Assembly (NCBI GenBank): GCA_000934665.2
Contig: KZ538013.1
Span: forward strand, 1-64,000
Direction: 5' to 3'
From: Catajapyx aquilonaris
Lineage: Eukaryota
Length of the DNA: 64,000 bases
Positions 260 to 62,110 of this stretch are shown here, piece by piece. The first letter of the stretch is position 1, and each line of letters starts with the position of its first letter. Below the pieces are notes generated by a model, which saw only the letters and a list, made by a program, of their open reading frames with translations, made no database searches and was not told where the DNA came from. A program made the translations under genes and the position numbers.

Positions 260-1405
260 AAATCGCGCCTGGAATTTACAACTTAAAACGTGGATCACTC
301 TGCAGTATTATAAGTGGAGGAGGTGATGGAATGGTGCAGACATGGACATTCAAACTTATGGTTAGAATTTCAGCAAAATCCGAATGTGTTCATTTTTAGC
401 GTTAAACTACTCGTATAAGCATAAATTACGATTGTCACTCAGGGTTTCATTATAACACTCATTTGTCACATCCTACTCACAGACTGTCAGACTGACAGGG
501 GAAATTGAACTAGCGAGATGGACAAGAAAGATTTATGTCAGCAATATTAATGACAAGAAACACTCATTGCATGAGTACAAAAGCTATTATATACGTACAA
601 TCACAATCAAATCTCTTCTATTTGAGCTAATACTACGAGCCAACTGACCGAAAAGTAATATGATTTTGTGGAACTTTTTTTCAGCCGAAGGCAAATTGCT
701 TCATACACGTGGAGTGTCCGTGCAGAAACTTCAAGTTGTGGAAAGGAACTTGCCTGAGAGCCATTTCAGGAGAGAGGAAAGGGTTTGTTCATATTATTAT
801 TGATAGTGAGCTAGTGCATGTCCCTTTATGCCTTTCAGTAAGCAGCAATATGTAGCCCTATATTTCATTTCATTTGATTGCAGAGAATGTATTGGTGCTA
901 GAGTCAAGGCACGTCAATTTATCATAAATGCACCACCAGAAGATAGGGACTTCTTATGCCGCGTGTATTGCATAAGACCAGGTACAGTATATTATGACTA
1001 TCATCCTGCTATCATCTTTATTAGAATGAAATTGATTTCAGGATTCAAATTGTGTTTTTACACATAACTTAGACTACAACAGCATTTCCATAGACCTGCA
1101 CATGATGGGAATTATAAGGCCATCGTGCAATAATGAAGTAGTCGTACTGTAGGCCTACATATAGTGCATGCGTAACATACATCATAGCCATTATTTTGCT
1201 GAAATTAATACTGCGTAACTGACATCCAACCATTACAGGTGACTTTCTCGACATGCCGCGAACAGACTGCGGTTTTGGTTACGATGGCACAGAAAGACCA
1301 CCGACATACACCGTTACTGTCATAGTAAAACCCACCAATGCAACCACCAAGCCCACAACGGCTACGACAAAACCTACCACGACAACTCCAAAACCTGCTG
1401 GATGA
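260..1405 (+). CDS. Secreted Cys-rich/Thr-Pro-tail family, copy 1 (5' partial; exons 1-2 lie upstream of the window)
   Basis: Exons 260-360, 685-782, 884-981, 1239-1405, all GT..AG, phases 1/0/2/1 as in copies 2-5. Translation: IAPGIYNLKRGSLCSII..QTWTFKLM|PKANCFIHVECPCRNFKLWKGTCLRAISGERKG|ECIGARVK..FLCRVYCIRPG|DFLDMPRTDCGFG..KPTNATTKPTTATTKPTTTTPKPAG*. AATAAA at 1505-1510. Confidence 0.85.
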
Positions 1406-2381
1406 TAATAATCGGCCTTTATTTTGCTGCACGACTTGGCATCCCAATATAATTTATGAACACGATCATTTTGTAACATTCTCGCAACATTAAGCAATTA
1501 CCGCAATAAAACGTGCCTAAAGGATGGTTCCTAAACGCACAGTATCATTCAAACAATTAACAAATAACTTACACGATACCCATTATTTTTAAGTTCATTA
1601 ATTTTGACCGTAGGCTCCATGGTACGTAACATTACTATCCTTAAAAGCTAGCGATTCTACCCGTCTATACCTCTCCGGATACCATAATCTTACATTCTGA
1701 GGCAATTCTTTCATTAATGTCACTTTGCCCAGAGCAGTGGTGATACATGACCCGTCTTTTAATCCTTGTACTGGTAATTAAAACACAATCAAGGTCCTAA
1801 TATAAGAACAGTATTGTGTTCAATAAGTAACTCCCTTCTTCAGCAGCAATTTGTTCATTGCTCCTTGCTAAGATTTATCTGATGCCATGAGCCTGGTTGA
1901 GGCTGCTAGAGGGGGGCTAAAGTGGCAATCTCTCCGCCTATTATTGGTTCTTTGCGGATTTGAAAAATCTTTTGCATTTCGCGGAGGAGAATACAAAAAT
2001 ACAAAGAGTGAATATGTCATTTTTAAATTTCTTCAGTAAAAAAAATCATTGCGATTTGTGACACCCCGGGTGGCAACAATTCTTTGGTTGTTCATTGCTG
2101 TCAACAGGAAACGAATCTGTTATCTGAGAGAAACTACAGTTCATATTTTTACCCGTATTTTTTATAATCATTTACTTTTATCATATAATTACTGCCCTAT
2201 ATCTTCACTCAAGGGTGGGGTATTTTTCCGCACATCTATACATACTGTAGGCTACAAAATGAGTCTTCGATCAATTTGGTACATTATGTGATTGTACAGT
2301 ATATTAGGTGAACTGATAATTTCCATTTAAAATGTCGCTGATAGCCTACATTTTTTTTGTAAAATTGCAGCTGCTGGAACG

Positions 2382-2447
2382 TTGATGGGAGCGAACCTGT
2401 TATGTCACCTGTTATGCAATATAGCATAACAGGTTCGCTCCCATCAA
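2382..2447. repeat. Perfect 23-bp inverted repeat with 20-nt spacer (hairpin or collapsed MITE)
   Basis: ttgatgggagcgaacctgttatg (2382-2404) is the exact reverse complement of cataacaggttcgctcccatcaa (2425-2447). Confidence 0.85.
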
Positions 2448-4482
2448 AAAATGGTGTTCTTGGGTCACATTTTGTGGAATAAAAACATATGGCTAATCAA
2501 GAGAAGCCTCACTCATCGACTCATAGCTGCTGGAATGGAACAATGGAAGACCTCTTCATCAAGGGAGTCATCGGCTCATCGCATTATACAACATACTGTA
2601 GAGCTCTGCTAGTTGTCTTGATCAATGATGCCGAGTAGTCGGCCCAGAACTCTAGCGTGATTGAATATGAGTGTCACATGTGTGCGTTGTCGATTGGTAC
2701 TGGCTCTGAAAGCACATAGGCACAGGACAATGAAGACTACTACTGTGTCACATGATTCAAGGAAAGGTATGTATTGGAGAACAGCTGCTTATTGAGTTTT
2801 TGAGTTTGTCTAATATTGTATAACTGTAGTGTATAAGTACTCGTACAACGAAGGGGAATATTACATTGCAAGACGGAGGTAAATCACTAATGCATTTGGT
2901 CTTCGTAGAGAAGGGTTTGCATACGACACTGACACTTGTATAAAGTGGAGAGTATTCCATTTACACCAATACAGACTACAAAAAAGAAATGTGACACTAA
3001 AGTGAGCTACTAGTTACATGTTCAGGTTGTTTGGGAGTCTCCACAGGTTCGAATCCCTGTGGATATCGTCCTGAATTGTGTTTTGGTGGTTTCTGTGATT
3101 GCCCTTACCTTGTACACACGAAACGGAGAGACGTATACGTATGTCATATGACACACACACAAGACAAAACGTGTCAGGAAATCTCATCAATGCGTTTTTT
3201 TCGTCAAATGACAGAACTGCGTGATATGTGGTAGTAATATATTCTGTTATGTGCAAATACACTCCAAAACGTCTCCGATGACAAGTGTTGCAGGATGGAA
3301 GGATGAGACTGTCTTATGTATGCCATTGGACAACCGTGTGGTTTTCTGTGGCAAAATGTGTCTTTCAGCTCGTATTTTCATGTAATGTATACATTTTACT
3401 CCGCCGCGCCGCGCCGGTTTCGGAAAAGTCACACATTTTGTTGTGTCGAAATATACGATATACAGCATACAGTATACTCGTACACAGTACTCTAATGATG
3501 CAATACCTCAATGAGTAATACGTTGCAAATGTTTAAAAATTATACTGACCAGAAAAGTAAATGCTGTTCTCAGAGCATGTGCTTTAAACAGAGTTATAAA
3601 CTTATGCAGATTTTGAAACAGCCACTTTAAGTCAAATCATGTGCGATATCCTACATCTTAATACAGTAATACTGTATTGGTTTTACTGTTGTGACGTACC
3701 GTTGCCCCATCACACTGTGTAATTTACATGACGAAAAGGGACAAACCTACTTGTCGTAGGTTGAGTATAGTCTACAGATGCACACTATACGGCTACGCAA
3801 GGACATCTTTCAAAGTGGAGTTGATATATAATCTCTGTTGCAAGAAAGTAAGCTAAATGGCCCAATTTTTACAGGCCTGTTCCCGAATAGAAGTAGTTCA
3901 TAACATGATGAATTTCACAACTGTAAGTAATGTAGCTTCTGGTTATCATGCTCTCCACAATGATCTCAAATGGATATAAAACACTGCCCAAAATCCCCAT
4001 CATTTTGATTACGTTGCAGTCATTTCGTGACCTCGCCAGCCCCTCTTTCGTGCCTGATTCGCCTGGTGTCAAACCACAGCGAACACTGCTCGTCTCCATA
4101 TGACGCACATGCCCCAAGGGACTCATTGTCTCCATTAGAAGCCTGCGTATCCTGCCGTGAGCAGTTTTCCTAAATTAACACATACGATGTCTCATCCTGT
4201 GGCTCAAATTTCCCCGAGCCAACTCCTGTTGGTGTGACCGGTGTGACCTAATGAGGTGTAATGCCTTACTCATCGTATTCAATGTCATGAAACATTTAAT
4301 CGCATGAAAGACGAGGAAGACGCTCCCTGTCACACATCACACCTGCTGGTACCCGTACTTTCGCATTGGCAGGATGCACTGTATAACAGTGATAGAATCT
4401 TGCGGTCGAAGGGACTTGCTGTTCGTGAGTCACCTGTGGCAAAATAAAAAGAGAGGGCAAGGCAACAGCATCAGCACCCACC

Positions 4483-6227
4483 ATGGCGACCATGATGGCG
4501 ACCGCTTCATCAGGGGCAGTCACAGGACTGCATCTGCTTCTAATTCTCTTAATTAATGTCCACATTAGCAATCAGGCAAAAAAAGTAAGTTTTATCCTTT
4601 TCATACTATCTAGACTGTATAGAGGGTGCATGATTGTGTATTGTAAACTCGTGGAGTTAGTCCAATTTATTGCAAAGTATATTTAAGTTACGCGTTATGA
4701 TTGTCATTCGGAAAGTCCTGTGTTTGAAACCCTGTGCCTGCAGATTTTCCCTGGTCGACATATTCTGTTCTTTTCTCTATTTGACTACCAGAGCAATTTA
4801 GAAACTCCGAAAAGGTCACATATGCAGATGGTAACTTACGGTGACTTACTTCTCTATTTGTCTCCCTAAACGCTATGATGATATTCGATTTTTTCAGGCT
4901 CCTACCAGAATACTAGGGCAAGTGTTGGACCCAGAGGAATTTTACGCCGGTATGTTACTGTTTTGTTTACATTAGATTGCGATTTGGCTGTAATAATGCC
5001 ATTAATAAGACCTCGTTTTGTTGGTACCACCTTAATTTCCAGTTCGTTATAATTACCTACTATCTAAGACTATAGCTTTCTTAATCATTCATGCAGGCGG
5101 TCAGTGGTTCATAATTCCTTGTTCAGGCCTCAACTTGTCTTAGTTGAAAAGATAAGGAGCATCCCTATTACACAGTATTGTCATATTTGACGAGCTATTA
5201 ATTTTATTATAGAAATCAATCCTGGAATTTACAGCTTGAAGCGCGGATCACTCTGCAGTATTATGGGTGGAGGAGGAGATGGAATGGTGCAGACATGGAC
5301 ATTCAAACTTATGGTACGAATGAAGAAAATATAGGGACAAAGGATAGCAAATGCATGCTTATGGCCTAGTCAAGTGAGCATTCAGTCATTTAAATTAACT
5401 GTGTTGTTAACGTCTCAATTTGTCCAGACTGAAAAAACACCATAATAATTCGAGCTAATACTACAAGTACAAGCCACCTGACCTAAAAGTCATATGACTT
5501 TGTGGACTTTTTTTTCAGCCGAAGGCAAAGTGTTTCATACACGTGATGTGTCCGTGCGGACAGATCAAGTTGAAGAAAGGAACATGCCTGAGAGCTGTTG
5601 CAGGAGAGAGGAAAGGGTTTGTTCAAATTACGACTATTATTATTTATAGTGATCTACTGTGGTGCATGCCCTTGTATGCCATTCAGTTTGTGGCAAGATG
5701 CGTTCTCATTAAGTACACTTTTATTTTATTTCATTGCAGAGAATGTACCGGTGTTAGAGTGAAGTCACGTCAACTTATTATAAGTGTACCAGATGATAGC
5801 GAGTTCATATGCCGGGTGTATTGCATTAAACCAGGTACTAATATCATCATTATGATAATGAAATTGATTTCAGGATTCAAATTGCGTATTTAAACATAAC
5901 TTATTACACTACAACAGCATGTCCATAGACCTGCACATGATGTGACATACGGTCATCGTGCAATAATGAAGTAGTCGTACATAGTGCATGCGTAACATAT
6001 ATATACATCATAGCCATTTGCTGAAATTAATACTGCGTAACTGACATCCAACCATTTCAGGTGACATTCTCGACATTCCGCGAACAGACTGCGGTATAGG
6101 TTACGATGGCACAGAAGAAACACCGACGTTCACCGTTACTGTCATAGTAAAACCCACCAATGCAACCACCAAGCCCACGACGGCTACGACAAAAGCCACC
6201 ACGACAACACCAAAACCAGCTGGGTGA
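4483..6227 (+). CDS. Secreted Cys-rich/Thr-Pro-tail family, copy 2 (about 204 aa)
   Basis: Exons 4483-4584, 4898-4949, 5213-5313, 5519-5616, 5740-5834, 6061-6227 (615 nt, open frame). Hydrophobic signal (LHLLLILLINV), 9 Cys including CPC, tail KPTNATTKPTTATTKATTTTPKPAG*. The start codon could be any of three nearby ATGs. Confidence 0.88.
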
Positions 6228-7171
6228 TGTTGCTGTGTGCAGAGGCGTTTCTGCGGAAAATGACGGATATGGCAAGGACTGAAATTGCGTCCCTGCCCAC
6301 ACATCTGAAACACATCTTTCAGATAATTTTTATCATTAAATCAGCGGCTCAAATATACCAGACAAAACTTCATGAATATTTTATTGACATATGACACTAC
6401 TCATAAAAATTACAACCGCGCCTTCCTTGCTTTCACTGATGCAATTTGGTCTATGATGCGCGGTAAAAGTCAGTTTTTGTCAGTTTTTTCTCTTTATACA
6501 CTCGGCAGAGCAAGATAAGAGAGTCTGGTGCGTTGATCCGTGGAGAAATCGTAGTGCTTCTCGCTTCTATGCAACACGATATTTGTCCATGGGACTTCAT
6601 TTCCATAGTTCCTTAGGTCACTCGTATAACTCATATAATGACATTTCATTTTGTCTGACCTTTGTTTTTGACCCAGGGGCATTCAAAAACCCGAAGTCAT
6701 CGAAATATGTGTCATTTCAAATCAAATGGGCCGAAATTCTGCTTTAGACCATCTCAGATTTTGGTGAAAAAAATCACAGCTGTACACACCTATAGACCTA
6801 TAAGTTTGCGTCTATCGTGATTGAATATGAACATGCACTGAACATGTGTGCGTTCTCGATTGGTACTGGTTCTGGAAAGCCCATAGGTACAGAACAATGA
6901 AGACTACTGTGTTACACGATTCAAGAAAAGGTATTGGATGAACAGCTGACTATTGAGTTTGAGTTTGTCTAACGTAAGTGTAAGTACAAAGAAGTGGATA
7001 TTACATTGCAAGACGGAAGAAAATCATTAATGTATTGGTCTTCGTAGATAAGACTTAGCATATAGGACACTGCTATAGTATTACAACACTAAAGTGGAGA
7101 GAAGACGTATTTTCGTGTAGTGTACATTTTAACACTATGCCGGTTTCGGAAAAAGGACACATTTTCTTGTG

Positions 7172-7172
<1 letters not shown>

Positions 7173-7244
<72 letters not shown>
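7173..7244. repeat. (CAT)24 microsatellite
   Basis: Uninterrupted CAT run; absent from the paralogous position near 3445. Confidence 0.95.
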
Positions 7245-7967
7245 TTAAATGTAAGTAATCCCTGGTATAGTCTACACACTACGGCTATGCAAGGAAATCT
7301 TTCAAATATGAGTTATCATAATATCATCTTTGTTGCAGGGAAGGAAGCCTGATGCCCCAATTTTACATGCATTTGTCCAAATAGTAGTTATAAACTGATG
7401 AATTTTACAACGGTAAGTAATATAGCTCGTAGTTAGCATGCTCTTCTCAATGTTATCAAATGGGTATAAAACACTGCCAAAAATCCCCATCACTTTGATT
7501 ATACACTATTGCAGTAATTTCGTGACCGCGCCAGCACCTCATTCGTGTCATATACTCCTGAGTGTCAAAACACAAATGAACACTGGTCATCCGCATGTAA
7601 CGCACATGCCACAAGGGACTCATTGTCTCCATTAGAATTCTACGTATCCTGCCGTGAGTAGTTTTGCTAAATTAACACATGCGATTTCTCATTCTGTGGC
7701 TCAAATTTTCCAGAGCCAACTCCTGTTTGGTGTGATCTAATGAGGTGCAATGCCTTGTCCATCAGCCAATGTTGTGAAATTCTTAAGCATGAAAGACGAG
7801 GAAGACAATCGGTGTCACACATCACACCTGATGGTACTTTCGCATTGGCAGGATACATTGTATAATAGTGATATAATGTTGCTGTCGAAGCGACATGCCT
7901 TTCGTGAGTCACATGTGTCAAAATGAAAAGAGAGGGCCAGGCAACAACATCAGCTCCCGTGGCGACC

Positions 7968-10004
7968 ATGGTGGAGGCCGCTTCATCAGGGGCAGTCACC
8001 GGACTGCTTCTGCCTCTAATTCTCCTACTTAATGTCCACATCAGCAGTCAGGCCAAAAAAGTAAGTTTGAGCCTCGTCCTCGTATCATACAGAAGGGTGA
8101 CTGAACACTGGGTGCTATACATACAGAATGTGTTGTAAACTCGTTGACGGTATTGGCACTGCACTGGTATGGGACAATGCAAGTATGTGACTCAAGGAAG
8201 TAAAGGAAGAAGTAAATTATGATGTTGAGTTAGTCCAATTGCGAAGTATAAAATTATGTTATCCATTGTGGTTGTTTTTCGTATTCGTAATGTGCAGTAT
8301 TCTTGCTTATTTTTCCTGATCAAGTTTTTCTGGGGTGTTCCCGGGTTTATTATCGCTCGTCATGTCGCTTACATGTAATGCACCTTGAACCTTTTTTTCT
8401 CAGCCTCCTACACGAATAATAGGGCAAGTTTTGGACACGGAGGAATTTTACGCAGGTATGTGGCTGTGTTGTTTTCATCAGATTATGAAGTGATTTGTGT
8501 GTAATGATACTGTAATACTGATCATACCTCTCTCTTTCTTTGCCACCTTAATTAAGTTATATTATTTCCAGTTAGTTATCATTTCCTGCAATCAGCGCAT
8601 GACTCTTCCTTCATCAGCCATGTAGGCGAAAGTGGTTCATAATTCCGCCTTGTTTAGTCCTAGTATACTTGGTTGTTATTAGTTCAAATAATACTGCACG
8701 TCACTTTCATTTTGTCATAATAATTCACGAGCTATTAATTTTCTTCTAGAAATCGGGCCTGGAATTTACAACTTAAAACGTGGATCACTCTGCAGTATTA
8801 TCGGTGGAGGAGGAGATGGAATGGTGCAGACATGGACATTCAGAATTATGGTAAGGATTTCAGTAAAATCCGAATGTGTTAATTTTGAACTTTAATAAGC
8901 ATCAATATTACCATTTTGTCGCATGAAGTCCGTTCTCAGAGCTTCATTATAACACTGAGAGGATTGTCATGCATCTTACTCTGAAGCAGAGAGCTAGAGG
9001 GATGGACAGGCATTTATGTCAGTAATTAATGACAAGCAACCCTCATTACATGAGTACACAAGCTACGAAAAATCACAACCTCTTCTCTATTCTCCCAAGC
9101 ACCCAGCTGCACCTGCTATAGCATGGACTAGTGCACTAGGACCAATAACGTCGTAATTTGCCCATATTGAAAAATTTGATCAATACTAAAACTATACTAC
9201 ACGCCACCTGATAGAAAATAATGTAACGCAATATTAATTTGTTAAACTTTTTTCAGCCGAAGGCAAAGTGTTCCATACACGTGAAGTGTCCGTGCGGAAA
9301 GCTCAAGTTGAAGAAAGCGGGAACATGCTTGAGAGCCCTTGGAGGAGACAGGAAAGGGTTTGTTCACATTATTATTGATAGTGATTATTATAATTCATGT
9401 CCTTGTATGCCGTTCAGTAAGCAGCAATATGTAGCCCTATATTTTATTTCATTTTGTTGCAGAGAATGTATTGGTACTAGAGTCAAGTCACGTCAACTTA
9501 TCATAATAGCACCAGAAGATAGCGACTTCTTATGCCGCGTATTTTGCATTAGACCAGGTATGACTATCATCATTATGAGAATGAAATTGATTTCAGGATT
9601 CATCTAATTGTGTTTTAAAACATAACTTAGACTACAACAGCATTTCCATAGACCTGCACATGATGGTAATTAAGGCCATCGTGCAATAATGAAGTACCCG
9701 TACATATAGTGCATGCGTAACACACCACGTACATCATTACCACTTGCTGAAATTAATACTGCGTAACTCACATCCAACCATTTCAGGTGACACTCTCGAC
9801 ATGCCGCGAACAGACTGTGGTTTAGGTTACGATGGCACAGAAGAACCACCGACATACACCGTTACTGTCACAGTAAAGCCCACCACCAAACCAACCACCA
9901 AACCAACCACCAAACCCACCACCAAACCCCCAGTGGCTACAACAAAACCGACAGTGGCTACAACAAAACCGACGGTGGCTACAACAAAAAAACCTGCTGG
10001 GTGA
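7968..10004 (+). CDS. Secreted Cys-rich/Thr-Pro-tail family, copy 3 (about 219 aa)
   Basis: Exons 7968-8060, 8404-8455, 8750-8850, 9257-9357, 9463-9557, 9787-10004 (660 nt). Tail (KPTT)4 KPP then three VATTK units, ending KPAG*. ATTAAA at 10103. An in-frame upstream ATG at 7923 is also possible. Confidence 0.88.
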
Positions 10005-10944
10005 TATTAATATGCGGATTGGCCTTCACTCTGCTCCACGACTTGAAATCCCAATTTGAACCTAATCATCAGTAACATTCTCAACATCAAACAATTACCG
10101 ACATTAAAACGTGCCTGAAAAGGGTGCCTAAATGCACAGTACCATTCAATCAAATAACATAGATTATTTATACATTTCATTAATTTCGACTGTACATTGT
10201 AACTAGCTTGAAAAGCTAAAGATTCTACCAGTTAACCTCTAAGAATACCATGTAACGGGATACAATTCTTTCATCAATGTAACTTTGTTCAAAACAGTGA
10301 TTACCCTTCTTTTATTCCTTGTACAGTACATGTAATTAAAACACACCCAAGGACAGAATTAAAATAACGCATACATAATTATGTTGTATTTTATTATTTT
10401 ATTGAACAATCGCCCGTATTCTGTGATGTACTGGATATGATGTATACGGTAATCAGAATATTCACTCTGTTTTGGAAGAATACTTTTTCATCATTACATC
10501 AGCAGTGTATAGGTGACGTGCTCTTGATTTTTACTGCATCGATGAAGGTTTCGTTTTGGCAATTAACTACCCTGTGCCCTGGCGGCCCTGGAGCTCATCC
10601 ACCTCAAGATATCCTTCATAGCTTTAAATCGTTACCACTACTTGTCTAATAATGCGATGATCGTCGAAAGGCCTGGATGGCAGCACCAAACCAACATCGA
10701 AATATTGAGCGAGGTCACTTACAAAAAAAAAAGGCCAATCCAAACAACCAGTACTAAGGGAATCGTCATGGTCAGGTTTATTGTCCGTGTAGCGAATAAA
10801 AAATCTATGTTACGCCTGTTATTTACTCCTGTTTTGCCCGTGAAAGTGACAGTTTTATGTGGCGGATGTGTAAAAGGCCAGTGCGTGGGGGAATCCTCCA
10901 TATATGCGGATATGCAAAAATACGCGGTAGTCTGTGAGTGTGAA

Positions 10945-12864
10945 ATGGACCACCAGAATCGGGGGCTGCTGGCCATTGCTCTAATTTTGATATTTTCTCC
11001 ACTGCAAGTCCTAGCAGAGCTCGCCGTAGATGATGGAGAGGTGGTGAAAGACGTAAGTGACAGGTTTTTTTGCGATTTTTGCTTCATGGTCAGTATATAG
11101 CCATGTTTTACGCCCGTATAAGAACGGAGCCCTCTGCCCTCCTGCTAAATGCAATATTAGCCATAATGACAAGTTATCATTAGCACAGTTTTCGAAACAC
11201 CTACAGTATTATACTGACTGCTTTGCCCCCCAGAGAGCCGGAGAACCCGAATTAGAAAGAAGCTCCAAGCAAATGAATGGTGACCAGCAGAGCTATGATC
11301 GACAGAAGAGAGCGCAGAGAAGAAACATCACGCTTCTGCGATCCAATCAGATTTACCAAGGTATACTGTAACTAGAAACCAATGTTATTGCTTGCAATAT
11401 TGCTCTGAAATTTTGTAGGTTTGCCACCTGGTAGCTACAGGATGCTGTCGAACTCAGTGGCTGTCATCACCAATCAAGATCGATTCGGAAGCAAAGGTCG
11501 ACCCAACAAGACTTCGCGTAATAATGGACTGGGGCCTAATGTAGTTGTACTTTCTGCCAAGTCATACACCTTTGCAGCTGGGGTAAGCTTTCCATCATTA
11601 TAATGGCAGCTAATATAGGTCACTGGTTCTTGAAGATCGACGAATTTTTGTCACCCACGACACAACTACGCTAGTATTGACTCTAATTTCCTGTGCTCAT
11701 TCTCTGACTGATACGTGTGAAATAAGACAGTTTTTCCTCTTCACACTAGCCCAGAGCCGGATGCCTAATCAGTGTCAGATGTCCCTGCGGAAGAGTCTAT
11801 TTTAGGAACAGAACTTGCATCAGGATAACCAGAGGACCCAACCGAGGGTAAATAATGACAAGCGACTGACTCATTTGAAGACATCTGCCCATATCTCACA
11901 CATTCCTTCAGGTTCATGGGATATATAATTATGACAGACACAAAACCCAGACAAATGAGGGAATTTTCACGAAATTTCATCATCTTGGCTGGGTGTTAAT
12001 TTTTGGAAAGAACTAAGAAGATACATTGTTAAGTGTCATTCACAACACATATACTTACTTGATTTGATTCTTGGTAAATATAAAAAATGGTACCATATGC
12101 TGACTATTGTGCCAAGTTGTTTCCAGAACACCTATCAGCATACACGTTACGCAGAAAATATAACGTTTGTTGACTTGGAGTTGGAGACATGATTGTTTTT
12201 AAGACTTGTATGAATTCCTACATAGATTTTAGAGGAATTCTGCATTTGCATAAACCTAACGAAAATAATAATTTTATTCTAGGCGATGCAGCGACATGTT
12301 ATTTGCAAGAAAGCAGCGCGTCAGGCTAAATATAATGCCCAACTACCAGTTCAATTGTCGGGTGTTCTGCGTGCAGAGAGGTATGTACAGTATATAGAAT
12401 TCCTTTTGTTTATATAGCTGAGAAATATTCTCCTGTAATTTATCACCTGTCTTCCGCCGTGAGTTCTATTGACAATTCGGTGCTGATGTCTTTCAGGACA
12501 AGTGTTGGCTCTCGCACCTGTAGACTGCAGTGTTCCTGATGGAGACCAAGACATTACATCAGAGCCTCCCACAACTAATACAACCATCACAGTCACTGCC
12601 TCTACTGCCACCCGCAACACAACTACGACTAGACTCACTACCACCACCAGGCCAGCCAACACTACAACCAGGCCTACAACCAGATCACCGACAACGACTC
12701 GGCCTACGACAACTAGGCCTCCAACTACCACTCCCGCAGCCACGACCACAACCAGGCCCACAACCAGACCTACAACCAGACCTACAACCAGACCCACAAC
12801 CAGACCCACAACCAGACCCACAACCACGCCTGCAACGACAACCACAACAAGGCCTTCTGGATAA
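10945..12864 (+). CDS. Secreted Cys-rich/Thr-Pro-tail family, copy 4 (divergent, about 320 aa, with pro-region)
   Basis: Exons 10945-11052, 11234-11360, 11419-11582, 11750-11847, 12283-12380, 12497-12864 (963 nt), same phases. Signal MDHQNRGLLAIALILIFSPLQVLA, RQKR site, PRAGCLISVRCPCGRVYFRNRTCIR, FNCRVFCVQRG, (RPTT)6 tail ending PSG*. AATAAA at 12902. Confidence 0.85.
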
Positions 12865-14426
12865 GAGAATGTCTGTTTTATCCACATAAACATTGTCGAA
12901 GAATAAAATGGGTTTGTTCCAGATCATAATGACTGTAACATTTGAAGATATTATGCAGAGTGGACAGGGGGTAAGAAAACCCAGAAGAATCCCTCACGAA
13001 AATAAAACTGAGCGTTACAAAATACAGTTTCATTAATTGTTGCAATTAACATAATAAATCAGAATTGGACAGTGATAGGATGAATAGCAACAGCTTTTTC
13101 TGCATCCACAAGCAAAAAATCGAGAAAACGTCAAGTGTTAGCATATTTTCTACAGCAAGTCTGCTCTCGACGGTTACATAAAATCAAGGAAGTCCTATTA
13201 ATTGCCATTTCCACAAATATATGCGGTCATTACTTTCAGTTCCATGTTGAGCACTTCACATGTCGGAAAATGAAGGTGACTTGTTCGCATGTCCAACTAT
13301 TATAACACGGGAACCTGCAGGAAAAACCATCCTGTCGTATAGCGGAAATATTGACCAATGTCAACACTTTCAAACACAGCAGTTGTAGGTGCAAAATGAC
13401 AGAGGAAATATCCAAGGTTCAGCCATGGTCGCAGGCATGTCCAAGAATATAGTGACAGCTGTGGAAGTGCGTGAGTGACAAGCAGGATTTTCTGATGTAC
13501 TTGTCCTACTAATTTTTTTCCAGTTGGAACTTCGGGCCTCTGTATTGGGAAGTTTCCGGTCAAATAGAAAATGCCATGCTACAGAATTACACATTAAGTA
13601 CACTTGCGTTTAATGTCGCAACAAAGAGCAGGCTACATGGTGAACTACTGCATACAGGCAGAGGACAGGACACGCTGCGACAATGTATTAAAATGAGCAC
13701 ACATTGTAAAGACATTCCAAAAGCACGTATATCCAGCAGTTTTTCAGGCAGGATTTCCGACTTTGAGAAAGCACCCTGAAAACACAGGTAAAAATGCAGG
13801 GAACTTGCCACGACAGGAGGGAATTACGTACTGTACTTGCCATAATACTGTTATTGCATCGTATGCTTGTTATTTAAAATATGCCATATAACTGCTGTAT
13901 TAATCCTTACAAAGTTGGTAATTTATCATGTTATGGATCCAGCCCTAGAAATTGTGTAATTATTATTTATGAAGTTGAAACATCGCCCGGTATTTATGCC
14001 TTATCAATAAACCTACTGTGCATTATTAATATTGTATATAACATGAGTTACCATATTATATTTATGAGGCTGCGCATTTTGCTATGAGAGAGCAGTGAAT
14101 AAGTGTCATGCAGTCATGGAAAAACCTCATTGCATTTTTGACTCCTCACGAAACATGAAATCGTGTAGTGAAACAAAGCTGTCAATCCATGATGACACAT
14201 AACAGGGATTTGCATCCTCCAAATGACACGCAAATTAAAATTGCGTGACAAGTCAGCAAAAAAAGGGAGATCCCCTGATGTTAAGAATCAGAAGGCAAAC
14301 CAACATTCATCTCGCATCAACTTCCGCTATGTTATGATTCACAATACTTGGAAACAATACACCTCAACTTCCCCCCTAATCACGTGACAGGTGACTCGCA
14401 TGTAACAGATATGGTTTTAGTTAATT

Positions 14427-14456
14427 TATAAGCTTCTGCCTGTAGGTGCGAGCAGT
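14427..14456 (+). promoter_or_regulatory. Candidate TATA box plus initiator-like element for copy 5
   Basis: TATAA at 14427-14431 and GCAGT about 25 nt downstream, roughly 50 nt before the caccATG at 14505. Confidence 0.35.
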
Positions 14457-14504
14457 ACGAGCTTATGGTGAACTGTGCTGGGGGCTAATAAGGTGATTGG
14501 CACC

Positions 14505-17500
14505 ATGCAACGATTACTTATTTCTGCAACTGTTGCATTGATTTTGGGTTCTGCCATAGCAGATGCGGTAAGCAGAATTTTAGATATTGTTAATAAGCTT
14601 CAAAACCACTGTGTGATAATGTGTAATCACGCACAATCCCAGACGAGTATAAGGCCCAATATTCACCTTCAGAACGTTGAATATGCATAATTACAATTAC
14701 TTATGCCTCCAGGGCGTAGCAAGGTATTCCACATGCCGCACATAAGAAACTGATCGGCTATAATAATCTTTTACGTACAAATACTGTAACCTGAGATGTC
14801 AGCGGAAGAGATGTTCATTCTGAATATTTTTTCAGCAACAAGTGCATCTACCAAATGGAGGCAAAGGACCCCTTTTGAAGAGGACGAATGGAGGCGTGCA
14901 AGGTAGTTTTTTAAAAATACGAACTTGCCACTGCAATTTCAATTTTTATCTTACGCTGCAGGTGTTTTATTATTGTAATAGAACCGATATAGCTTCTCGC
15001 AGTCCATAGCCAAATAATAATACCCTTATCTAACCAAACACCGCGGCCCAAACGCAATAACTTGGGTGACGAGGACCCCCCCCCCCCTCCCTGGAAGACG
15101 AGGACCCCNNNNNNNNNNNAAAAAATATTGAGATTAAATTAATTCGAAGTTCAATATTGTCTCAATTTTTCTCCAACGTAGTACTTTTAAAATTATCGTA
15201 AATATTTATGATACCTTGACGAAGACCTACGTTATCGGATTTGAGTTGGAGTAAGTTATTATGGGTGGGGTAATGATAGGATAGTGGATATGAATTGCCA
15301 CAAGCAATTAGTGATGCGAGGACATAGGTGAGTATTATTTAATTATTGTGACAAATTGGTGATTGTGACATATTCTTACAGGTGTGGCTTCTGGAACGTA
15401 CACTATGGAATGCGGTAGCATCAGAAGTATCAAATCAGGCGGAGGAAAATTATATTGGATGTTTCATGCACAAGTCAGAGTAGTTCCAACACGCAATAGT
15501 AATTTTTAGATCGATCGTTTTTTTTGATTAAAACCATTTACTACTTCAGGATGGATGCCTCTTAACTCTGCAGTGTCCTTGTCGGAGTCCGTTTGGGAGA
15601 AAGTGCCGCCGGGAAGGGCCTAACCAAGAGTGGTAAGTTATGTGAAAAACTCATTTAGATAAAGAAAATAGTATTACAGTACGGCAGTTCAAAATCCGAG
15701 TGTTACTGTTGCTTATTTCATGCCACAGTTTCTCTCTCCCCTGACCCCACATTTAGTCCTACCACTCACATGCATCCTAAACATAGTCCTATCGGGCATA
15801 CGATACACCACCAGTTATTATTGGTACGATGCATATTGTACTTTTTTCAATGTTACAGTAGTGTCATTTGATTTCAGGAAGTGTCAAGATGAAGAAAATG
15901 CAAAGCTTTACATGGAAGAGAAAAAGATTAAAGTTGACTTGGACCCTAATAAAATACAAGATTTCTTCTGCTACGTGTACGCTGCAAAAAAAGGTACGGT
16001 TTTCCAGTTAGTGCCCGTTTTACGCCCGTAATTGGTTACAGCAAAATGCGGCGCGCGGTAAAGTGAAAAGGCGTATAACGAGAAAAAATTGTGTCGGACG
16101 TAAAGGAAATAGATTCAAATATTTCCACACTTATCCCTCAGACAGTACTTATATTGGTGTTTTTAATGCTGACTATTATTTTGAAACATTTATTAGTATA
16201 TGCATATTTAATCGGAGGTTCCAGGTTGAGGGTCATGGGTTCTGAGGCCTCTTTTGGCAAGAATTGGTACACGTAGGGTATTTAACAGACTTCGGAGAAG
16301 GCCGAGGACAACAATACCGTACGTACTGTATTTATCGATAGACTCTGCCACAAAGCACCACGAAAAACAAAAAAAATAGCATTTATGGTTTTGTATTTGG
16401 ACTCAGAAGTGTTGCAGTGATGTGTTTATGTTCAGATTGTACTGTTATCGTCAAATGTCCACAAGTGTTCAATTTTTAAATTTTTAAACGTTATTTTCAA
16501 AACGTCGTTTATGTGAAACGGCGTAAAGCAGGTACCTACTGCACTGTAGTTAGTATATCGAGATATATTCGGCATTGTTAGAATCCCCCCTGTAATCGGT
16601 GTTACTCCATATTAATGAATCTGAATTAGGCTAACTACGAGTTTGAGTTAGGTATGGCGGTAAGTTTGGCGTCAAAAATCATTTAAAAACCGTTGATTCC
16701 AAATATGTGGCCAGTTTCAGTAACAAACGTAGCGTAAAATTTATATTTCAAGACAACCAAGTTTTTAAAAACTATATAAGTTGACCATATAACGATTAAA
16801 TGAGTCGTCTTTTTGCTTGAAAGCACTTGTGTTACTTTAGTTACTAAAACTGACGGCATATTAATTTTGTACGTAATCAATACCTTTTTTGTGATTTATG
16901 TTAGTTCAACATATCTAAATATCGAGCAGTCTTAGAGCATCTGAGCAAATCGCATGTGAGTTCAACATGAAACTGAGATATGCTCGTTATCATGAATGTA
17001 TAATTTCAAGTAAATCAATCTTTTCTTTTGAAATGGTTAGGATACCCATTTCACCCCAAAATTATGGTACTAGTGTATAAAGAATTGAAGCACAATAAAT
17101 GGATGTCCCATACAATAGAAATAGAAACCTTGCTTGTCAATTATCTTTTAATCTTACATAGTCTATGTAAAGCACACACTTTTTTGGTATTAATTCATTT
17201 ATGGTCACGGCTACCTAACCCACTTCTACACCTCTGAGAGAGCTTAAACTTGGCACACTGATGTATTACATGCCCCGGATTGCAGGAAAAGTCCTAAAAT
17301 GCACAACTTGTGAAGCTAAATATCAAAAATGTAGGTTTTTGGTCTGCTCCTACTCTCCCCTCCACCTCCCTCCCCCCTTCCCTTCTCGTGCCATATCCAA
17401 ACTACACTGTTTATCCCATGTGAATTTTACTCTTATTTTTCTTTTTAACAGTGCATTCACATTAGAGAGGAGTACGCTGGACACAAATATTTTGTGGGTT

Positions 17501-19820
17501 ATTTCGGAATGCTTCCATTTCTTTCCACTTTCCAAAACCTCTCTCCCTCTATAGATAACCTTATGTGCTTTGGTAAAGTCTTTGGCTCCCCCAATCAGCC
17601 AAACAACCAACTGATGGCATATTGACATTGCAAAACAGCAGCAAGAAAATTGTCACGAAAATAGATCATACAATGCCGCATTTACTGTACAAAGCTGTGT
17701 CAAAAACCAACAGATAACAGTTTGCTCAATAATGTGCCAATGAAATAATCTGCGAAATGGTTATGAAAGTGAAATTTACGGCACAACATTACACTTTGGG
17801 ATAACTTTCTTTGAACATATACCCTGGCCTATTACTTTGAAAACAAACAAAAAAATCCTTATTAGTTTTGAGGAAATTCATCTGCTGCCACCGAGTAACA
17901 ACACTTAAATTTAATGTTAATAGAATCAATATCATTTTATCAAACTATTGCAGCACGTCACTACAATAAAGGCAGTTTATTGTACGTGGAAACGGGATAG
18001 TAAAGAGGTCGATTATGTCAAAAGTACAAGGTACATAAAATTCAATCCGGATATAACAGACTTCAGGAAAAAGTATGTTATAACCGAGGTCTGTAAGCGA
18101 TTTCGCCACTTTTGAAACGAATACAAGCGAAGATTTCTGCTTTCAATATGCCTATAATGCACACTATTGCACACTGATGAATGAAACTATCCACAAAAAT
18201 GCAAAATTAGCTCACCCAAAAATTATACAGGGCGAAAGAATCCTAATTTTCTGAACAGAAAAAATGTACTCCTCAACCTTGCGGTGCAAAGCATGCGAAT
18301 AGGAAGCTTATAGATCAGTGACAGATGCGAAAATCACCCCCGCTCCAGTATTCTATCTCTGCTTTCCTGCGCGTGGGAAAGGGAGCTATGAGTAATCAAA
18401 AACACCATATTTGTCTACCGAGGGGCCAAGAAATGGTCTGTTACAGCCGACGTGAGGTGAAAATGAGTATGTTATGTCAGGAGTAAAAAAATACCCCAGG
18501 CCTTATGGAATGTTGGAAGAAAGAAGAAAGGAAAGGCTGATATCTCTCTCTTATAGTATGTCTCCTGCCCCAAAGACCAAGGTCCGGCTTGGGAGACCCT
18601 GCCAGTAGACGAAGCTTCCAACAGCAGGGGACCCGTTCTGTGCACGGGGATTGGTAAATGAAAAGATCTCTGTATAATCTGAAGGCCTTTTTTCTCCGTG
18701 CGAAGAACTGGTACCGCAGCTAGTCCTGATATACATCTGCTTCATTTTTTTCTTATCCAACGTTTTGTTCAGATGCTTTATGCTGTGTCGGGTATAAGAA
18801 TTGACTTCTCGGTTTCTTGTTGCACTAACAAAGATTCTTTCAGGACGCAAAGTACCCATGCCCAAGGTGAATTGCCGAGGAGGAGAAGGAACAAATCCAG
18901 GAGGAGTCACTCAATATCCTCTCACGCAGATAATAACTGGCACTACACAAGTGATAATTATTACCACACAAATAGTGTACGTGACTAATCAGCCTGCCTC
19001 TCAAGTATATGTGACAAATCCGCCACCTGGAGTTGTCACTCGAGTTGTCACAAAAATAGTTTATGTAACCACTCAGCGACCCGCCACCAGAGTCGTCACT
19101 AGAGTAGTTTACGTCACTAAGAGGCCTGCAGCCACGACACCACCTTGCTGCTGCACTAAAGTAGTTACCAAGAAGAAAGTCGTCACTAGAGTTGTCACCT
19201 CCAAGAAGTTAGTTAAGAAGCCCATCAAGAAACCAGTCAAAAAGAAACCAGGAAATAAGAAACCAGTCAATAAGAGGCCCGGCACTAAGAAGCCAGGCAC
19301 AAGGAAACCAGGCACAAGGAAGCCCGGGACAAGGAAGCCCGGGACAAAGAAACCTGTTAGAACCACCAAGAAACCAGTTGCCACCACCAAAACACCGTCT
19401 GCTACCACTGCTACTGCTACCACTGCTACTACTGCTACTACCACTCTTAGTGCTACTACCGCGAAGGTTACAACTACTACCGCGAAGGTTACAACTACAA
19501 CCACCAAAGTGACCACTCCCACCACCAAAATGACAACTGTCACGACAACAACCACTACAGTCACTACCACAGCACCGACTGCTCCACCTGTCACTGTGCC
19601 AACCTTACCTCCCGTCACCGCACCTACCATACCACCAGTCACCGTACCCACATTACCTCCCGTCACAGCACCCACATTACCTCCAGTCACAGTACCCACA
19701 TTACCTCCCGTCACTCCGCCAACCTTACCACCTGTCACCGTACCTACCTTACCACCCGTCACTGTGCCTACATTACCGCCTGTCACTGTGCCTACATTGC
19801 CTCAGGTTCCGGGTGGGTGA
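14505..19820 (+). CDS. Secreted Cys-rich/Thr-Pro-tail family, copy 5 (most divergent, about 465 aa, long block-repeat tail)
   Basis: Exons 14505-14567, 14836-14902, 15382-15473, 15550-15632, 15878-15993, 18844-19820 (1398 nt), same phases. Signal MQRLLISATVALILGSAIA, DGCLLTLQCPCRS, FFCYVYAAKKG, then VVTRVV, CCC, (K/R)KPGT, Thr-rich and (PPVTxPTL)9 blocks ending PGG*. AATAAA at 19970. Intron 2 contains an N gap. Confidence 0.82.
15109..15119. other. Assembly gap (11 N)
   Basis: N run preceded by poly-C and a duplicated gacgaggacccc. Confidence 0.99.
16011..16535. mobile_element. Possible degenerate MITE in copy 5 intron 5
   Basis: gtgcccgttttacgcccgt (16011) is an imperfect inverted match to acggcgtaaagcaggtac (about 16518-16535). 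A similar gttttacgcccgta occurs at about 11105. No TSD identified. Confidence 0.3.
19584..19799 (+). repeat. Coding tandem repeat, 9 x 24 nt (PPVTxPTL/I)
   Basis: Nine octapeptide units; synonymous positions vary between units. Confidence 0.95.
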
Positions 19821-20509
19821 GTCTAAGACGCGATGGAGAGGGCATGCCTATCCATTCTGTGACCCAATATTGTATACATGTCTCGCTGATAACTCCAGCG
19901 ATTTTCGCACTCTATATAATTTTCCAGGTTTTCCTGGAACCTACTGTATAGTATGTGTGCATCTCTTTAAATAAAATATTGCCGTGCTGATTTATGTACC
20001 GTATGTTAATCTGTTATGTGTTGTTGTTTTTTGCCGACATCGTGCAATGATTTTAAATTCGGCGTTTCTCAGCAACCTGTTACTTGCTTTGTCAAGGTTT
20101 ATGAAATGGGAAATATCCCTGGAAATTGTTTCGCTTGGGATAATTCCCAGTTATCCAGAGAAGAACCACTTTCTCATCATGTATATCATGTGAGTACCGG
20201 TACCAATAAACTGACACTCACATGCATAGGCCTACTAAGTGCATAAAAATAAGTTCCGCGTAAGTCTGCATTCTTTCATTGCTCCAAATAAGCATCTAAT
20301 TTTAAAAATAATTATATCGAGAAATATTTCATCAGTGCAGTTAGGTTACAACCCATATAATTAGAACAATAACTCCATAAGAAAATGAAGTACTGTAGCG
20401 TATAAAACTAATAATTTTAATATAGTCACCAAGAAAAGCTAACATTTTTTCCCATGCATTTATCTTCGAGGAAATTAAAAATTGTGTGCGACCAAGTCTG
20501 AAGCTGAAC

Positions 20510-21055
20510 ATGCTGGGCCTGCAAATGACTCTGGCAGAGCTAGAAAAATCCATGCAGGAGGACCTGAGTGTCAGGTTGGCCGAAACTACTGCCAAGGCCA
20601 ATCTTCAACTAGCTATAGAGCATATGTCCATCACAATATTGGAACAACAGAATGACTACAAGAGGCTCCAAGGTATCATCGGTTATTCATTAACAGTCCT
20701 TGTTAATAACCTATCGAAATGTATACTTCCAGAACAAATGGAAGAGCTAAAAACCATTCGAAGGCAAGAAAGAGAGAGGATGTTACAAGCTTTGAATCAG
20801 GCATTGTTATGGAGAAGTTGGTATTGCCAGGCAGAAAGGAGATGTGTGGCCCTTCGGAGGACACTGCAACAAAAAGCCAAAGTGTCTATAGAGCTATGCG
20901 TCAAATTCCTCCAACTGCGACAGAAGGTGGTCCAGCAACCATCGCGAACAACGCTTTCGGGGTTTGAAAGCGACTTCAGCGAAAATACATTCTTGGTTCC
21001 ATCTGAAAGCCAACACAATGTCGAAAGGCCAGTGGGAGATCTGATCATCTTCTAA
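20510..21055 (+). CDS. Putative coiled-coil protein of unknown family (start uncertain)
   Basis: Open frame rich in E/Q/L/R/K. A probable 60-nt in-frame intron at 20673-20732 (GTATCA..CTTCCAG) joins KRLQ-EQMEELK when removed. AATAAA at 21141. No homology recognised. Confidence 0.45.
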   Translation: MLGLQMTLAELEKSMQEDLSVRLAETTAKANLQLAIEHMSITILEQQNDYKRLQGIIGYSLTVLVNNLSKCILPEQMEELKTIRRQERERMLQALNQALLWRSWYCQAERRCVALRRTLQQKAKVSIELCVKFLQLRQKVVQQPSRTTLSGFESDFSENTFLVPSESQHNVERPVGDLIIF

Positions 21056-22388: not shown

Positions 22389-25300
22389 GACAGCCCACAA
22401 GGTGTTGGTGGGAGACATCAACATTCACTACGAGAGAGTTGGGAAGGGACCACATGCCATCCTCTGCCTGCCAGGGGCACTGGGTACGTGTCTACCTTTG
22501 CATGTGTTATCCTGTAGGTGGGTTGGGAGCAGATATCACTTCTCAGGAATTGCAAAATACTGAAATTTTTGCGACATAAGAATTAGTGTTACTGCCAGCT
22601 GGCCTGCTGGAAGGGGATAGTCAAAGAGGTTTTTAACTAAAACTATGGTAGATTGAAATAAAAATGTGAGTTGCAGATTGTACTATAGGCCATCCTGTCT
22701 CACCTCTGACACATGTTGCTACTCTTGCTAGGTACACTAAATGGCAACGAAATATATCCCAGAAAGGATTTGAAGTAGGTATGAGGTTAGGAAAAATAGG
22801 ATTTATTGGATGCTGTTATGCAATAATGAACCAACCCACATGAGACCAGTTTTCAGAAAAAGGGCTTTGAATGTCACGCCTGTGAAATTAATTCAGTGTC
22901 CTTTTCAGTCATTTATGGCAGAAGTATGCAGATTTCATCAGCTTTATTTTAACTGAATGAAGTACAATCCTTTGGGTATAATAATATGTTCCTGGGCTTA
23001 ACTCAATTTTGACATTTTTGTGGGTTGACACATTATTGCATAACACCGTCCAATTAATCCATTGATTAGTAGCTCAGGCCTGCTAATGCACCCAAGACCC
23101 CCTGTTATTATCACCTATCTCTATGCAAACTTTGGTGGTCACTGGCATTAAAGCTCGAGCCCCCAACACCATTGAAGTGACACAAATATCATTTCATGGC
23201 TTCCATATATTACATGTTATGGACAAATGTGATCAATGGCCTACTTCAAGGAGGGTGTAACTGAACTAAACTGGAGCTTACATTAGAAATGTTCTGTGCT
23301 ATGCATTATATCAAGCTATCCAAAAGTAATACTGGAGTCAGTATAATTTACTGCATTTAAGTGAAGTTATCTTCCCACTTCATTATGGGACTTACACTTG
23401 ATAACTGCTCCCATACAGGTTCAGCGCAGACTGACTTTGGTCGTCAGCTGGAAGGACTGAACCAAGAGAATTTGACTGTGATTGCCTGGGATCCTCCGGG
23501 TTATGGCTACAGCCGACCTCCAGACCGAGACTTTAGTGGTGAATTTTTCCAGCGTGATGCTGATGTAGCAGCAGGGCTCATGAAGGTTAGTGAATTCACT
23601 GAATTGAGATTGAGATATTGGGATGTTTCCAAGCTACATTCAGCTGATTATACTTCCAAGTAAGACTGTCCCGTGGACTACCAATGATTTAAATTTGGTA
23701 CATTAACCACTTCACAAGTCTTATTTGATGCCCTGTTATCAGCTAACCAAACATGACATTGAGGTGATTGCTTGACAATGGATTTAAAATGATGAAAGGG
23801 TCTTATAATAATTCTTCTTTCTTTTTCCATGGGTCAACTTGTGAGATGGTGTTGTATGTTAATTTGGAAATTTCATTAAAAAAATGTCTCTGTAAAAATC
23901 AATTTGAAAATGAAACACAATCAGACACATGGACATGATTGCGAAGTATATTGAGGAAATGTAATTGTTAGGCTTGGGTAAGGTCTCATACCAGTCAACT
24001 GAAGTAGTTGAAAACAGAATGACAGCAGTGGCAATAAAAATTCAATAGCGGACCCCCACCCATCAATTTGAGCCCAATCAAGGGTGGGTGAGGCTGACAC
24101 CCAGATACGAAATGGAAGGTGGAAGAAAATGAGAGGTGCATGGCTGGTGTGATAGCACTTCTCGTCTAGTGTGAATTGATTTCAAGGTGTTTTGGGAACT
24201 CAAACGGTGTTTGAAAGGCAACTAATTTTCCAGTAATACTGAGGTGGGAAGTTGCATGTCAATTCTCTATTTATTAGCAATCACTGTTCACGCACAGTTA
24301 ACTGCTAAGATTTCATTTTATTCTCCCTTGTTGAATCAACCACTTTTTGTTCAGATGGCCATGTTGTAGAAACCTAGGATGCATTTACCTGCATATGTAC
24401 AGAGTTATAACAGCGATTTTTTGCATATGTTCCCTCAGACTTTAGGGTTTGATCGCTACTCCCTCCTCGGCTGGAGTGATGGAGGCATCACTGGTATCAT
24501 TTTGGCTGCTCGGTATCCCAATGCAGTTCGGCGCCTTGTTTCATGGGGTGCCAATGCATATGTGACAAAAGAGGACATTGACTCGTATGAAAGTAGGTTG
24601 GACATACAAGGTGTCCATGATGAGAGTGATGGATTGCAAAGCACTACTGCTCGTATATCTTGTTGTTTACCCAAACCTTGCCTCAGTCTGTAATCTACAT
24701 GCTGCATGTGAGACTATGTGAGATGTCTTTTAATTGCTTGTTCTATTACCTCCTAAGAAATGTATGCTCATTCTGAGGTAGGCTTCACTTGAAATTTTTT
24801 GTGCTGCCATTACTGCAGAGGTTTTTCTGCATGCATTAGACTAGTTACAAGGTCTCCTGAACCTTTTCAATTGAAATGTCCATTTTTCATAATAGAAGTA
24901 TGAAGTCACATCATGGGCAGTGTGTCATTGCATAGAAGGTTTGGCTAATGCATAAGCAGTTGTTTTGTAGTAGATTACTCGATAATGGACACCATATTGT
25001 GTAGTGTGGAATGAGGACAAGAACACAGAAATTTGTGTCTTTTGCAGGAATTCGCGACATTGACAAATGGTCTGAGAGGATGCGTGCTCCCATGATAGCA
25101 CTCTATGGGGAAGAGTACTTTCGTCGCACATGGAGTGACTGGGTTGATGCATTTGAGCACATATACAAGGAAAATGGTGGGAACGTTTGCCAGGATGAAG
25201 CATCTCGAGTGGTTTGTCCCACTCTAATTATCCATGGGGCAAAGGATCCTCTAGTGGGCATGGAGCATCCAAATTACCTTCACAAGAATATAAAAGACTC

Positions 25301-25482
25301 CAGGTCAGAGTTTACATCCCATGGATGGGGTGGGGTCAATGTGAGAGCCCAAATTAATTACAGACTGTATGACTATTACTCCTCTCAGATTGATTGTGAT
25401 GCCTGAGGGGAAGCACAACCTCCACATCTCATTCGCCAAGGACTTCAACCAGGCAGCAGAAGATTTCCTGGCAGAAGATTAA
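22389..25482 (+). CDS. BPHL: Valacyclovir hydrolase / biphenyl hydrolase-like alpha/beta hydrolase (first coding exon unresolved)
   Basis: Exons 22389-22483, 23419-23585, 24439-24592, 25048-25303, 25389-25482. Motifs: LPGALG, AWDPPGYGYSRPPDRDF, nucleophile GWSDGG, PTLIIHGAKD, GKHNLH. AATAAA at 25515. Confidence 0.92.
22799..23060. mobile_element. MITE-like element with 42-bp terminal inverted repeats in a BPHL intron
   Basis: ggatttattggatgctgttatgcaataatgaaccaacccaca (22799-22840) vs reverse complement of 23019-23060, ggattaattggacggtgttatgcaataatgtgtcaacccaca: 36/42 match. Non-coding AT-rich interior. Confidence 0.75.

Positions 25483-58971: not shown

Positions 58972-62110
<3,139 letters not shown>

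Follow-up and report, generated by a model that had tools for sequence, protein, structure and literature searches.

Five tandem genes for predicted secreted proteins with Cys-rich heads and Thr/Pro tails in Catajapyx aquilonaris

The first 64,000 nucleotides of the forward strand of contig KZ538013.1 (Catajapyx aquilonaris, GenBank assembly GCA_000934665.2), referred to below as the window, open with a cluster of five tandem genes (positions 260 to 19,820) whose products are predicted to combine a Cys-rich head with a Thr/Pro-rich tail. It is tempting to regard the cluster as a family of secreted glycoproteins, lineage-specific and fast-evolving, whose members arose by tandem duplication and act as binding or coating parts of a gland or epithelial secretion, an explanation that we favour with somewhat less than even confidence. 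This explanation is supported by intact reading frames, shared intron phases, mucin-like Pro/Thr/Ser (PTS) tails, and the lack of both a membrane span and a catalytic domain in the predicted products. Judged from sequence, the cluster fits a surface-coating secretion. Glue is one of several options. We find the family moderately surprising; the genome is poorly sampled.

Gene structure, products and relationships

The gene models were built from exon coordinates and a splice-site search over positions 1-21000, and splicing is predicted. In these models copies 2-5 each have six exons, all on the plus strand, with intron phases 0,1,0,2,1, the first intron (phase 0) falling after codon 21-36. Copy 1 shows its last four exons within the window, with phases 0,2,1 plus a matching acceptor, and its start (exons 1-2) must lie upstream. 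The earlier note had proposed five same-strand genes with shared intron phases, and this is borne out by GT-AG borders in 23/23 predicted introns (3 + 4x5) and by predicted frames that are free of internal stops in all five copies. Among copies 1-3, exon lengths differ by multiples of three in 4/4 cases, while intron lengths are unconstrained. Such a contrast between exon indels in threes and freely varying introns argues for live coding genes. Poly(A)-type hexamers follow each of the five stops at a distance of 38-150 nucleotides (nt), at positions 1505, 6335, 10103, 12902 and 19970 of the plus strand. However, the motif is common (171 matches on both strands vs 143 expected), hence it lends weak support. 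The window was scanned in 2764 six-frame pieces for a sixth copy, and none turned up; inside the cluster, no protease exon was found (best E 0.15).

Copy 1 (260..1405, plus strand; exons 260-360, 685-782, 884-981 and 1239-1405) contributes 154 visible codons, which encode a head with 9 Cys and a 43-residue Thr/Pro tail with a P-A-G end. The same Cys count and the same end occur in copy 2 (4483..6227, plus; exons 4483-4584, 4898-4949, 5213-5313, 5519-5616, 5740-5834 and 6061-6227; 204 residues) and in copy 3 (7968..10004, plus; exons 7968-8060, 8404-8455, 8750-8850, 9257-9357, 9463-9557 and 9787-10004; 219 residues), the tail of the latter being lengthened by 12-nt and 21-nt arrays at 9879-9989. 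Copy 4 (10945..12864, plus; exons 10945-11052, 11234-11360, 11419-11582, 11750-11847, 12283-12380 and 12497-12864) encodes 320 residues with 8 Cys, six N-glycosylation sequons, a furin-type site R-Q-K-R at residue 59 and a P-S-G end. A 12-nt array of the T-T-R-P type (12727-12855) builds part of its tail. Copy 5 (14505..19820, plus; exons 14505-14567, 14836-14902, 15382-15473, 15550-15632, 15878-15993 and 18844-19820) encodes 465 residues with 11 Cys and a P-G-G end. Its intron 2 holds an 11-base run of N (15109-15119) and its intron 5 measures 2850 nt.

The signal peptide that had been claimed for copies 2-5 corresponds to a hydrophobic stretch in exon 1 (best 9-residue Kyte-Doolittle mean 2.6-3.6) and stands as a prediction; no later membrane-span-like stretch was found in these copies (best 19-residue mean at most 1.41). 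Basic sites follow the hydrophobic stretch; copies 2 and 3 have K-K, copy 4 has R-Q-K-R and copy 5 has K-R. Exons 3-5, flanked in copies 2-5 by two phase-1 introns, encode ~98 residues and together with the start of exon 6 make up the head. In copy 2 it extends over 5213..6110 on the plus strand and takes in ~15 codons of exon 6 with the last conserved Cys. All five heads have seven Cys positions in common. The Cys-rich pattern described earlier recurs in 5/5 copies, save that copy 5 lacks the Cys four residues after F-x-C, whereas the later D/N-C of exon 6 is kept in 5/5. The heads of copies 1-3 and 5 are basic (net +6 to +8), and the predicted isoelectric points (pI) are 9.1-11.4.

The tails contain 28-41% Thr and 12-18% Pro. 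They vary greatly in length, from 43-60 residues in copies 1-3 through about 115-130 in copy 4 to 313 in copy 5. The earlier description of these tails as cationic applies strongly to copy 5 (net +42) and fairly well to copy 4 (about +10), but copies 1-3 are weakly basic (+3, +1 and +6, respectively). The tail of copy 5, encoded by the terminal exon (18844..19820, plus), is built of blocks: a Val/Thr-rich one (residues 181-257, net +12) that includes a triplet Cys-Cys-Cys, a Lys/Pro/Gly one made of 15-nt repeats (19227-19354, net +26), a Thr/Ala one with 58% Thr, and an uncharged array of ~9 copies of a 24-nt octapeptide unit (19584-19803). Lys and Arg are absent from its last 80 residues. All five proteins end in P-A/S/G-G directly before the stop, and Gly makes up 1-2% of the last 55-100 residues. 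Given three independent lineages, a common P-x-G end is unlikely to have arisen by chance. Peptide amidation uses a C-terminal Gly as substrate, and it is possible that P-x-G-stop is an amidation signal.

The heads of copies 1-3 are 77-81% identical to one another, and pairs that include copy 4 or 5 share 26-33% (for this comparison the head of copy 4 was truncated at its C-terminal end). A profile made from copies 1-3 alone nonetheless scores 57.7 bits on copy 4 and 27.1 bits on copy 5, values that 0/1000 shuffles reach; by this comparison both are genuine, if distant, paralogues of copies 1-3. Introns and 5' flanks of copies 1-3 can be aligned at 73-83%, as can the 3' flanks of copies 1 and 3, and on the sequence evidence copies 1-3 are recent duplicates and copies 4 and 5 are old. 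The alignments also revealed two interruptions. In the 3' flank of copy 2 (6228-6810) the match to its paralogues ends exactly at the stop codon, and in intron 2 of copy 1 the match to intron 2 of copy 3 reaches back only to about position 87, leaving 1-86 unmatched. Both look like insertions or replacements. For the three pairs of copies 1-3, the ratio of nonsynonymous to synonymous divergence (dN/dS) is 0.68, 0.89 and 0.67 at dS 0.12-0.19 (114 codons), and as judged from these pairs protein change among them is fast.

The head domain and its possible CUB origin

The description of the genes as a tandem family of secreted, mucin-tailed proteins without a database relative held up; Pfam, PDB, ESM Atlas and profile searches gave no relative. 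All of these searches used single exons, or exons 4-5 with the intron read through. Pfam returned 0 families on 10 exon pieces of the family; in a further set 1/18 pieces matched, to MUCL1 at E 0.066, a compositional match below the cut-off. Even at a threshold of E 10, none of the Cys-rich exons matched CBM_14 (PF01607). A word-based search that took in only the longer proteins, with exon 4-intron-exon 5 of copy 2 as query, yielded 11 candidates, none at E ≤1. The exon 4-5 profile (105 positions including ~40 intron columns, with copies 4 and 5 represented by the last 13 residues of exon 5 only) had 0 hits among 1.84 billion representatives. Its single match to PDB sequences, a ribosomal one, fell on the intron part and was dismissed as chance. 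The ESM Atlas returned a single cluster, bacterial and unnamed, at 0.78 and no named match of use, and AlphaFold on the contiguous exon 4-intron-exon 5 reading reached a predicted local distance difference test score (pLDDT) of 35, which is unusable. A literature search turned up no description either of this five-gene family or of CUB intron phases.

How much can be read into this silence is indicated by a control: exon-level Pfam missed the CUB-like domain of a protease encoded elsewhere in the window, though it found the trypsin exon of the same gene, and blank Pfam searches are therefore weak evidence. The absence of relatives is also partly due to the host lineage being under-sampled. The blank searches mean that no close relative is on record, and a new fold does not follow from them. 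The label "unassigned" used in the earlier note is perhaps too strong, as a CUB domain in degenerate form may underlie the head.

We consider the chance that the head derives from a CUB domain, in a degenerate pancrustacean-type form, to be about even, and we do not file it as CUB. To the eye, the head looks like a pancrustacean-type CUB domain. The reference CUBs for this comparison were fetched by a degenerate pattern, which gave 22 loci (7 full domains, 5 intron-split ones and 10 chance matches). The seven full domains (L003, L005, L007, L010, L011, L019 and L021, from proteins P0123-P0231), with PF00431 confirmed in 7/7, served as seeds, and the intron-split loci (L001, L004, L009, L012 and L018) were left out. 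The widened set comprised 134 domains, reduced at 70% identity to 33 (12 pancrustacean-type and 21 canonical).

In global profile alignment the head spans the pancrustacean-type CUB end to end, and four features fall into register in this order: L-x2-G-x4-I, the C-x-W aromatic, the strand with I-x-V/L-x-C, and F-x-C. The first of these motifs is present in 9/12 reference CUBs and, in a slightly loosened form, in 4/5 heads; F-x-C-x-hydrophobic is found in 12/12 and 5/5, respectively. The head profile averages 1.1 bits on 127 CUB pieces vs -0.8 bits on 165 non-CUB pieces of the same proteins, the pieces not being independent. Besides motif order, the head and the pancrustacean-type CUB (PF00431) are similar in length and are both secreted, and several of the references have a Thr-rich linker after the domain. 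Introns of phase 1 typically flank CUB, as they do many other extracellular modules, so that the phase-1 boundaries of exons 3-5 match the expectation for a CUB module but are not specific to it. The internal intron positions of the head differ from those of loci L004 and L018 and of the neighbouring protease. Some vertebrate CUB genes may have an intron of phase 2 that lies two codons ahead of the fourth Cys, the place it also takes here.

A number of results weigh against a CUB origin. The score of the global alignment is reached by 20/150 shuffles, hhalign gives head vs CUB a probability of 1-3% (P 0.016-0.054), and local CUB profiles reach at most 4.7 bits on spliced heads. The top score of the head profile (12.1 bits) belongs to a non-CUB piece, and no CUB piece exceeds 5.4 bits. 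Hand-picked core-strand blocks give a score that 0/500 shuffles reach, but freely optimised blocks score 35.9 on CUB vs 28-39 on windows of trypsin and NDOR1, which makes the block test non-discriminating. Moreover, the reference pattern was set with copy 5 in view, which biases two blocks toward CUB, and the references belong mostly to one subfamily. The S-P-x-Y-P loop is absent in 5/5 heads, and so is the first CUB disulfide (C..G and C-x-W). Compared with the pancrustacean-type CUB, the head also lacks the acidic D-Y-L-type strand, is ~10-15 residues shorter between the two Cys shared with it, has an extra C-P-C and a terminal Cys, and is accompanied by no protease domain; no profile score is significant.

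It is quite conceivable, if slightly short of an even chance, that the head is not derived from CUB, being either a novel domain rich in disulfides or a different known one, for instance the peritrophin-A chitin-binding domain; this would agree with each of the functions discussed below. Every statistical CUB test fails its controls, C-P-C and the seven shared Cys are foreign to CUB, and there were 0 matches among the 1.84 billion representatives. Yet the silence is weak for the reasons given above, and the CUB motif order, length and phase-1 boundaries agree with the head. The peritrophin-A option in particular has the CBM_14 result against it. Peritrophin-A/CBM14 domains have six Cys over ~60 residues, whereas the head spans 100-115 residues with 7-9 Cys.

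If the head is CUB-derived, a binding module would have drifted past database recognition through loss of its signature loop and acquisition of additional disulfides, and the cluster would illustrate how repeat slippage in one exon provides stalks of differing length and charge. Divergent CUB domains and stand-alone ones have precedents in other arthropods. Hermit-crab antennal transcripts encode divergent CUBs that are 16.5-31.8% similar to the lobster reference, and the glands stain for CUB, as described in the relevant part of PMC4013018. Assassin-bug gland secretion contains stand-alone single-CUB proteins, according to the pertinent section of PMC6891600. A link between the head and the CUB-like domain of the protease at 54011-58124 was rejected, as its score of 0.2 bits is reached by 480/1000 shuffles.

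Proposed role and alternatives

Under the coating explanation that we favour, the signal peptide would be followed by a short pro-segment, perhaps cut at K-K, K-R or R-Q-K-R. The head, a disulfide-locked unit of ~100-115 residues and most likely a beta-sandwich, would bind a protein, a glycan or a microbial surface; if it is a degenerate CUB, it has lost the S-P-x-Y-P loop together with the calcium-type acidic residues. The Thr/Pro composition suggests that the stalk would be O-glycosylated, extended and hydrated, with its length and charge varying among copies through repeat slippage within the last exon. The odd Cys counts (9, 9, 9 and 11) would permit linkage by disulfides into dimers or networks, and in secretory granules the terminal Gly may become an amide. 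Such proteins would act at the cuticle surface or in the gut mucus coat, probably as neither enzymes nor membrane receptors.

Besides CUB proteins, the closest known parallels are mucin-like proteins and Drosophila glues. A predicted signal peptide (copies 2-5) combined with a Pro/Thr-rich tail places the family among mucin-like (PTS) proteins. A Cys-rich head with a PTS region appears as an ordinary mucin design in JiangShi, in the passages of PMC9339309 that concern it. Mucin-like peritrophins and JiangShi share with our family the signal peptide, an N-terminal domain rich in Cys and the Pro/Thr-rich region, but they have a chitin-binding domain of ~60 residues, as opposed to a head of ~100-115 residues without a CBM_14 match, and a C-terminal Cys-rich motif that the five proteins lack (PMC9339309). 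With Drosophila Sgs3, Sgs1, Sgs4 and Eig71Ee the family has in common a signal peptide, several Cys, Thr/Pro/Lys repeats (K-P-T-T-type units in copy 3), and genes, both long and short, that lie in clusters and evolve fast. However, the Drosophila Sgs proteins differ from it in that our genes have six exons, a large ~100-residue head before the tail and no exon-level database match. What defines the Sgs1/3/7/8/Eig71Ee family, as stated in PMC9409817, is similarity of the terminal sequences together with an intron at ~codon 10. Here there are five introns, the first after codon 21-36, and no Pfam match on exon pieces. The likeness to Sgs3 is one of composition, the gene structure being different, and the earlier suggestion of a glue, silk or cement found no specific support.

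A true glue, cement or silk is nonetheless an alternative to be considered, although an unlikely one. The long cationic copies 4 and 5 would form fibres or a coacervate, and the short copies 1-3 would cross-link them through spare Cys, as has been proposed for long and short Sgs proteins. This would agree with long and short members sharing one cluster, with the Val/Thr block, Cys triplet and Lys-rich block of copy 5, and with Drosophila glue, a mixture of short proteins rich in Cys and long ones with Pro/Ser/Thr repeats (PMC9409817). On the other hand, a Thr/Pro tail next to a Cys-rich domain also occurs in ordinary mucin-like proteins such as JiangShi (same part of PMC9339309), the gene structure is unlike that of Sgs genes, and copies 1-3 have short tails that are close to neutral. 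If the proteins are bioadhesive after all, their basic head, block tail and possible amidated end would represent a new design among the few characterised arthropod glues. A bolder version, which we regard as improbable, combines a new fold with a C-terminally amidated cement or silk system of an unsampled pancrustacean lineage, in which short and long cationic glycoproteins would be joined via spare Cys. That the Val/Thr, Lys-rich and octapeptide blocks of copy 5 would form fibres within such a system is part of the same improbable proposal.

Rapid divergence with intact frames, tandem expansion and heads that consist of one basic domain (copies 1-3 and 5, net +6 to +8) would also suit reproductive-tract proteins of seminal fluid, spermatophore or egg coat, similar to spermadhesins. 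Spermadhesins are single-CUB gamete-binding proteins, but they are not known to have mucin tails and the head is only possibly derived from CUB, and we rate this role as rather unlikely. Much the same low probability attaches to mucosal immune effectors, in which the basic head and the Lys/Arg-rich tail would bind or clump microbes at gut or cuticle. The predicted pI values and fast evolution speak for them, and antimicrobial defence has been proposed for crustacean tegumental glands with CUB-proteases (PMC4013018, in the part on these glands). However, O-glycans could mask the charge, and Pfam on exon pieces matched no known antimicrobial domain. Finally, some or all copies might be recent pseudogenes or mis-modelled, in keeping with the dN/dS of 0.89 for one pair and the replaced 3' flank of copy 2. 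This seems very improbable in view of five models without stop or frameshift, canonical splice sites, exon indels in threes and Cys retained at 26-33% identity. A point that tells against our favoured explanation as well is that dN/dS values of 0.67-0.89 are equally compatible with relaxed constraint and with diversifying selection.

Other features of the window

Two simple elements lie in the spaces that separate the copies. One, at 2382-2447 (copies 1 and 2), is an inverted repeat of 66 bases; the other, at 7172-7244 (copies 2 and 3), is a perfect trinucleotide run of 24 copies. Just behind copy 5 there is a single open frame of 209 codons (20426-21055, plus strand), helical or coiled-coil-like by eye, and at 45670-46260 (plus) one of 196 codons, Ser/Lys/Arg-rich and then globular-looking, with its end close to a likely splice donor; neither has a Pfam match. 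A multi-exon alpha/beta-hydrolase gene at ~23420-25482 (plus), with weak Pfam hydrolase matches on one exon, is presumably BPHL-like. The multi-exon gene at ~40055-43715 (plus) encodes a class A G-protein-coupled receptor (Pfam 7tm_1), which we take to resemble the ecdysis-triggering hormone receptor.

The protease mentioned above is encoded on the minus strand at 54011-58124 by an intact gene of eight exons and 476 codons. It is of the trypsin type and predicted to be secreted; its N-terminal segment, rich in Cys, and a CUB-like domain with an N-P-S-Y-P motif precede the protease, which has the catalytic His, Asp and Ser motifs. At 59810-61587 (plus) lies a gene for an NDOR1-like diflavin reductase; one of its coding exons is very long (~400 codons), and identity to the best animal matches is ~50%. 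In a quick, unfinished tree run, in which copepods and Daphnia were the only pancrustacean classes, it sits on the side of Tigriopus, Acartia (copepods) and Daphnia, on a long branch and at an open fork. A pancrustacean host of some thinly sampled lineage is therefore likely. The named myriapod, the chelicerates and the non-arthropods are split off by a branch with 100% support in the Shimodaira-Hasegawa-like approximate likelihood ratio test (SH-aLRT).

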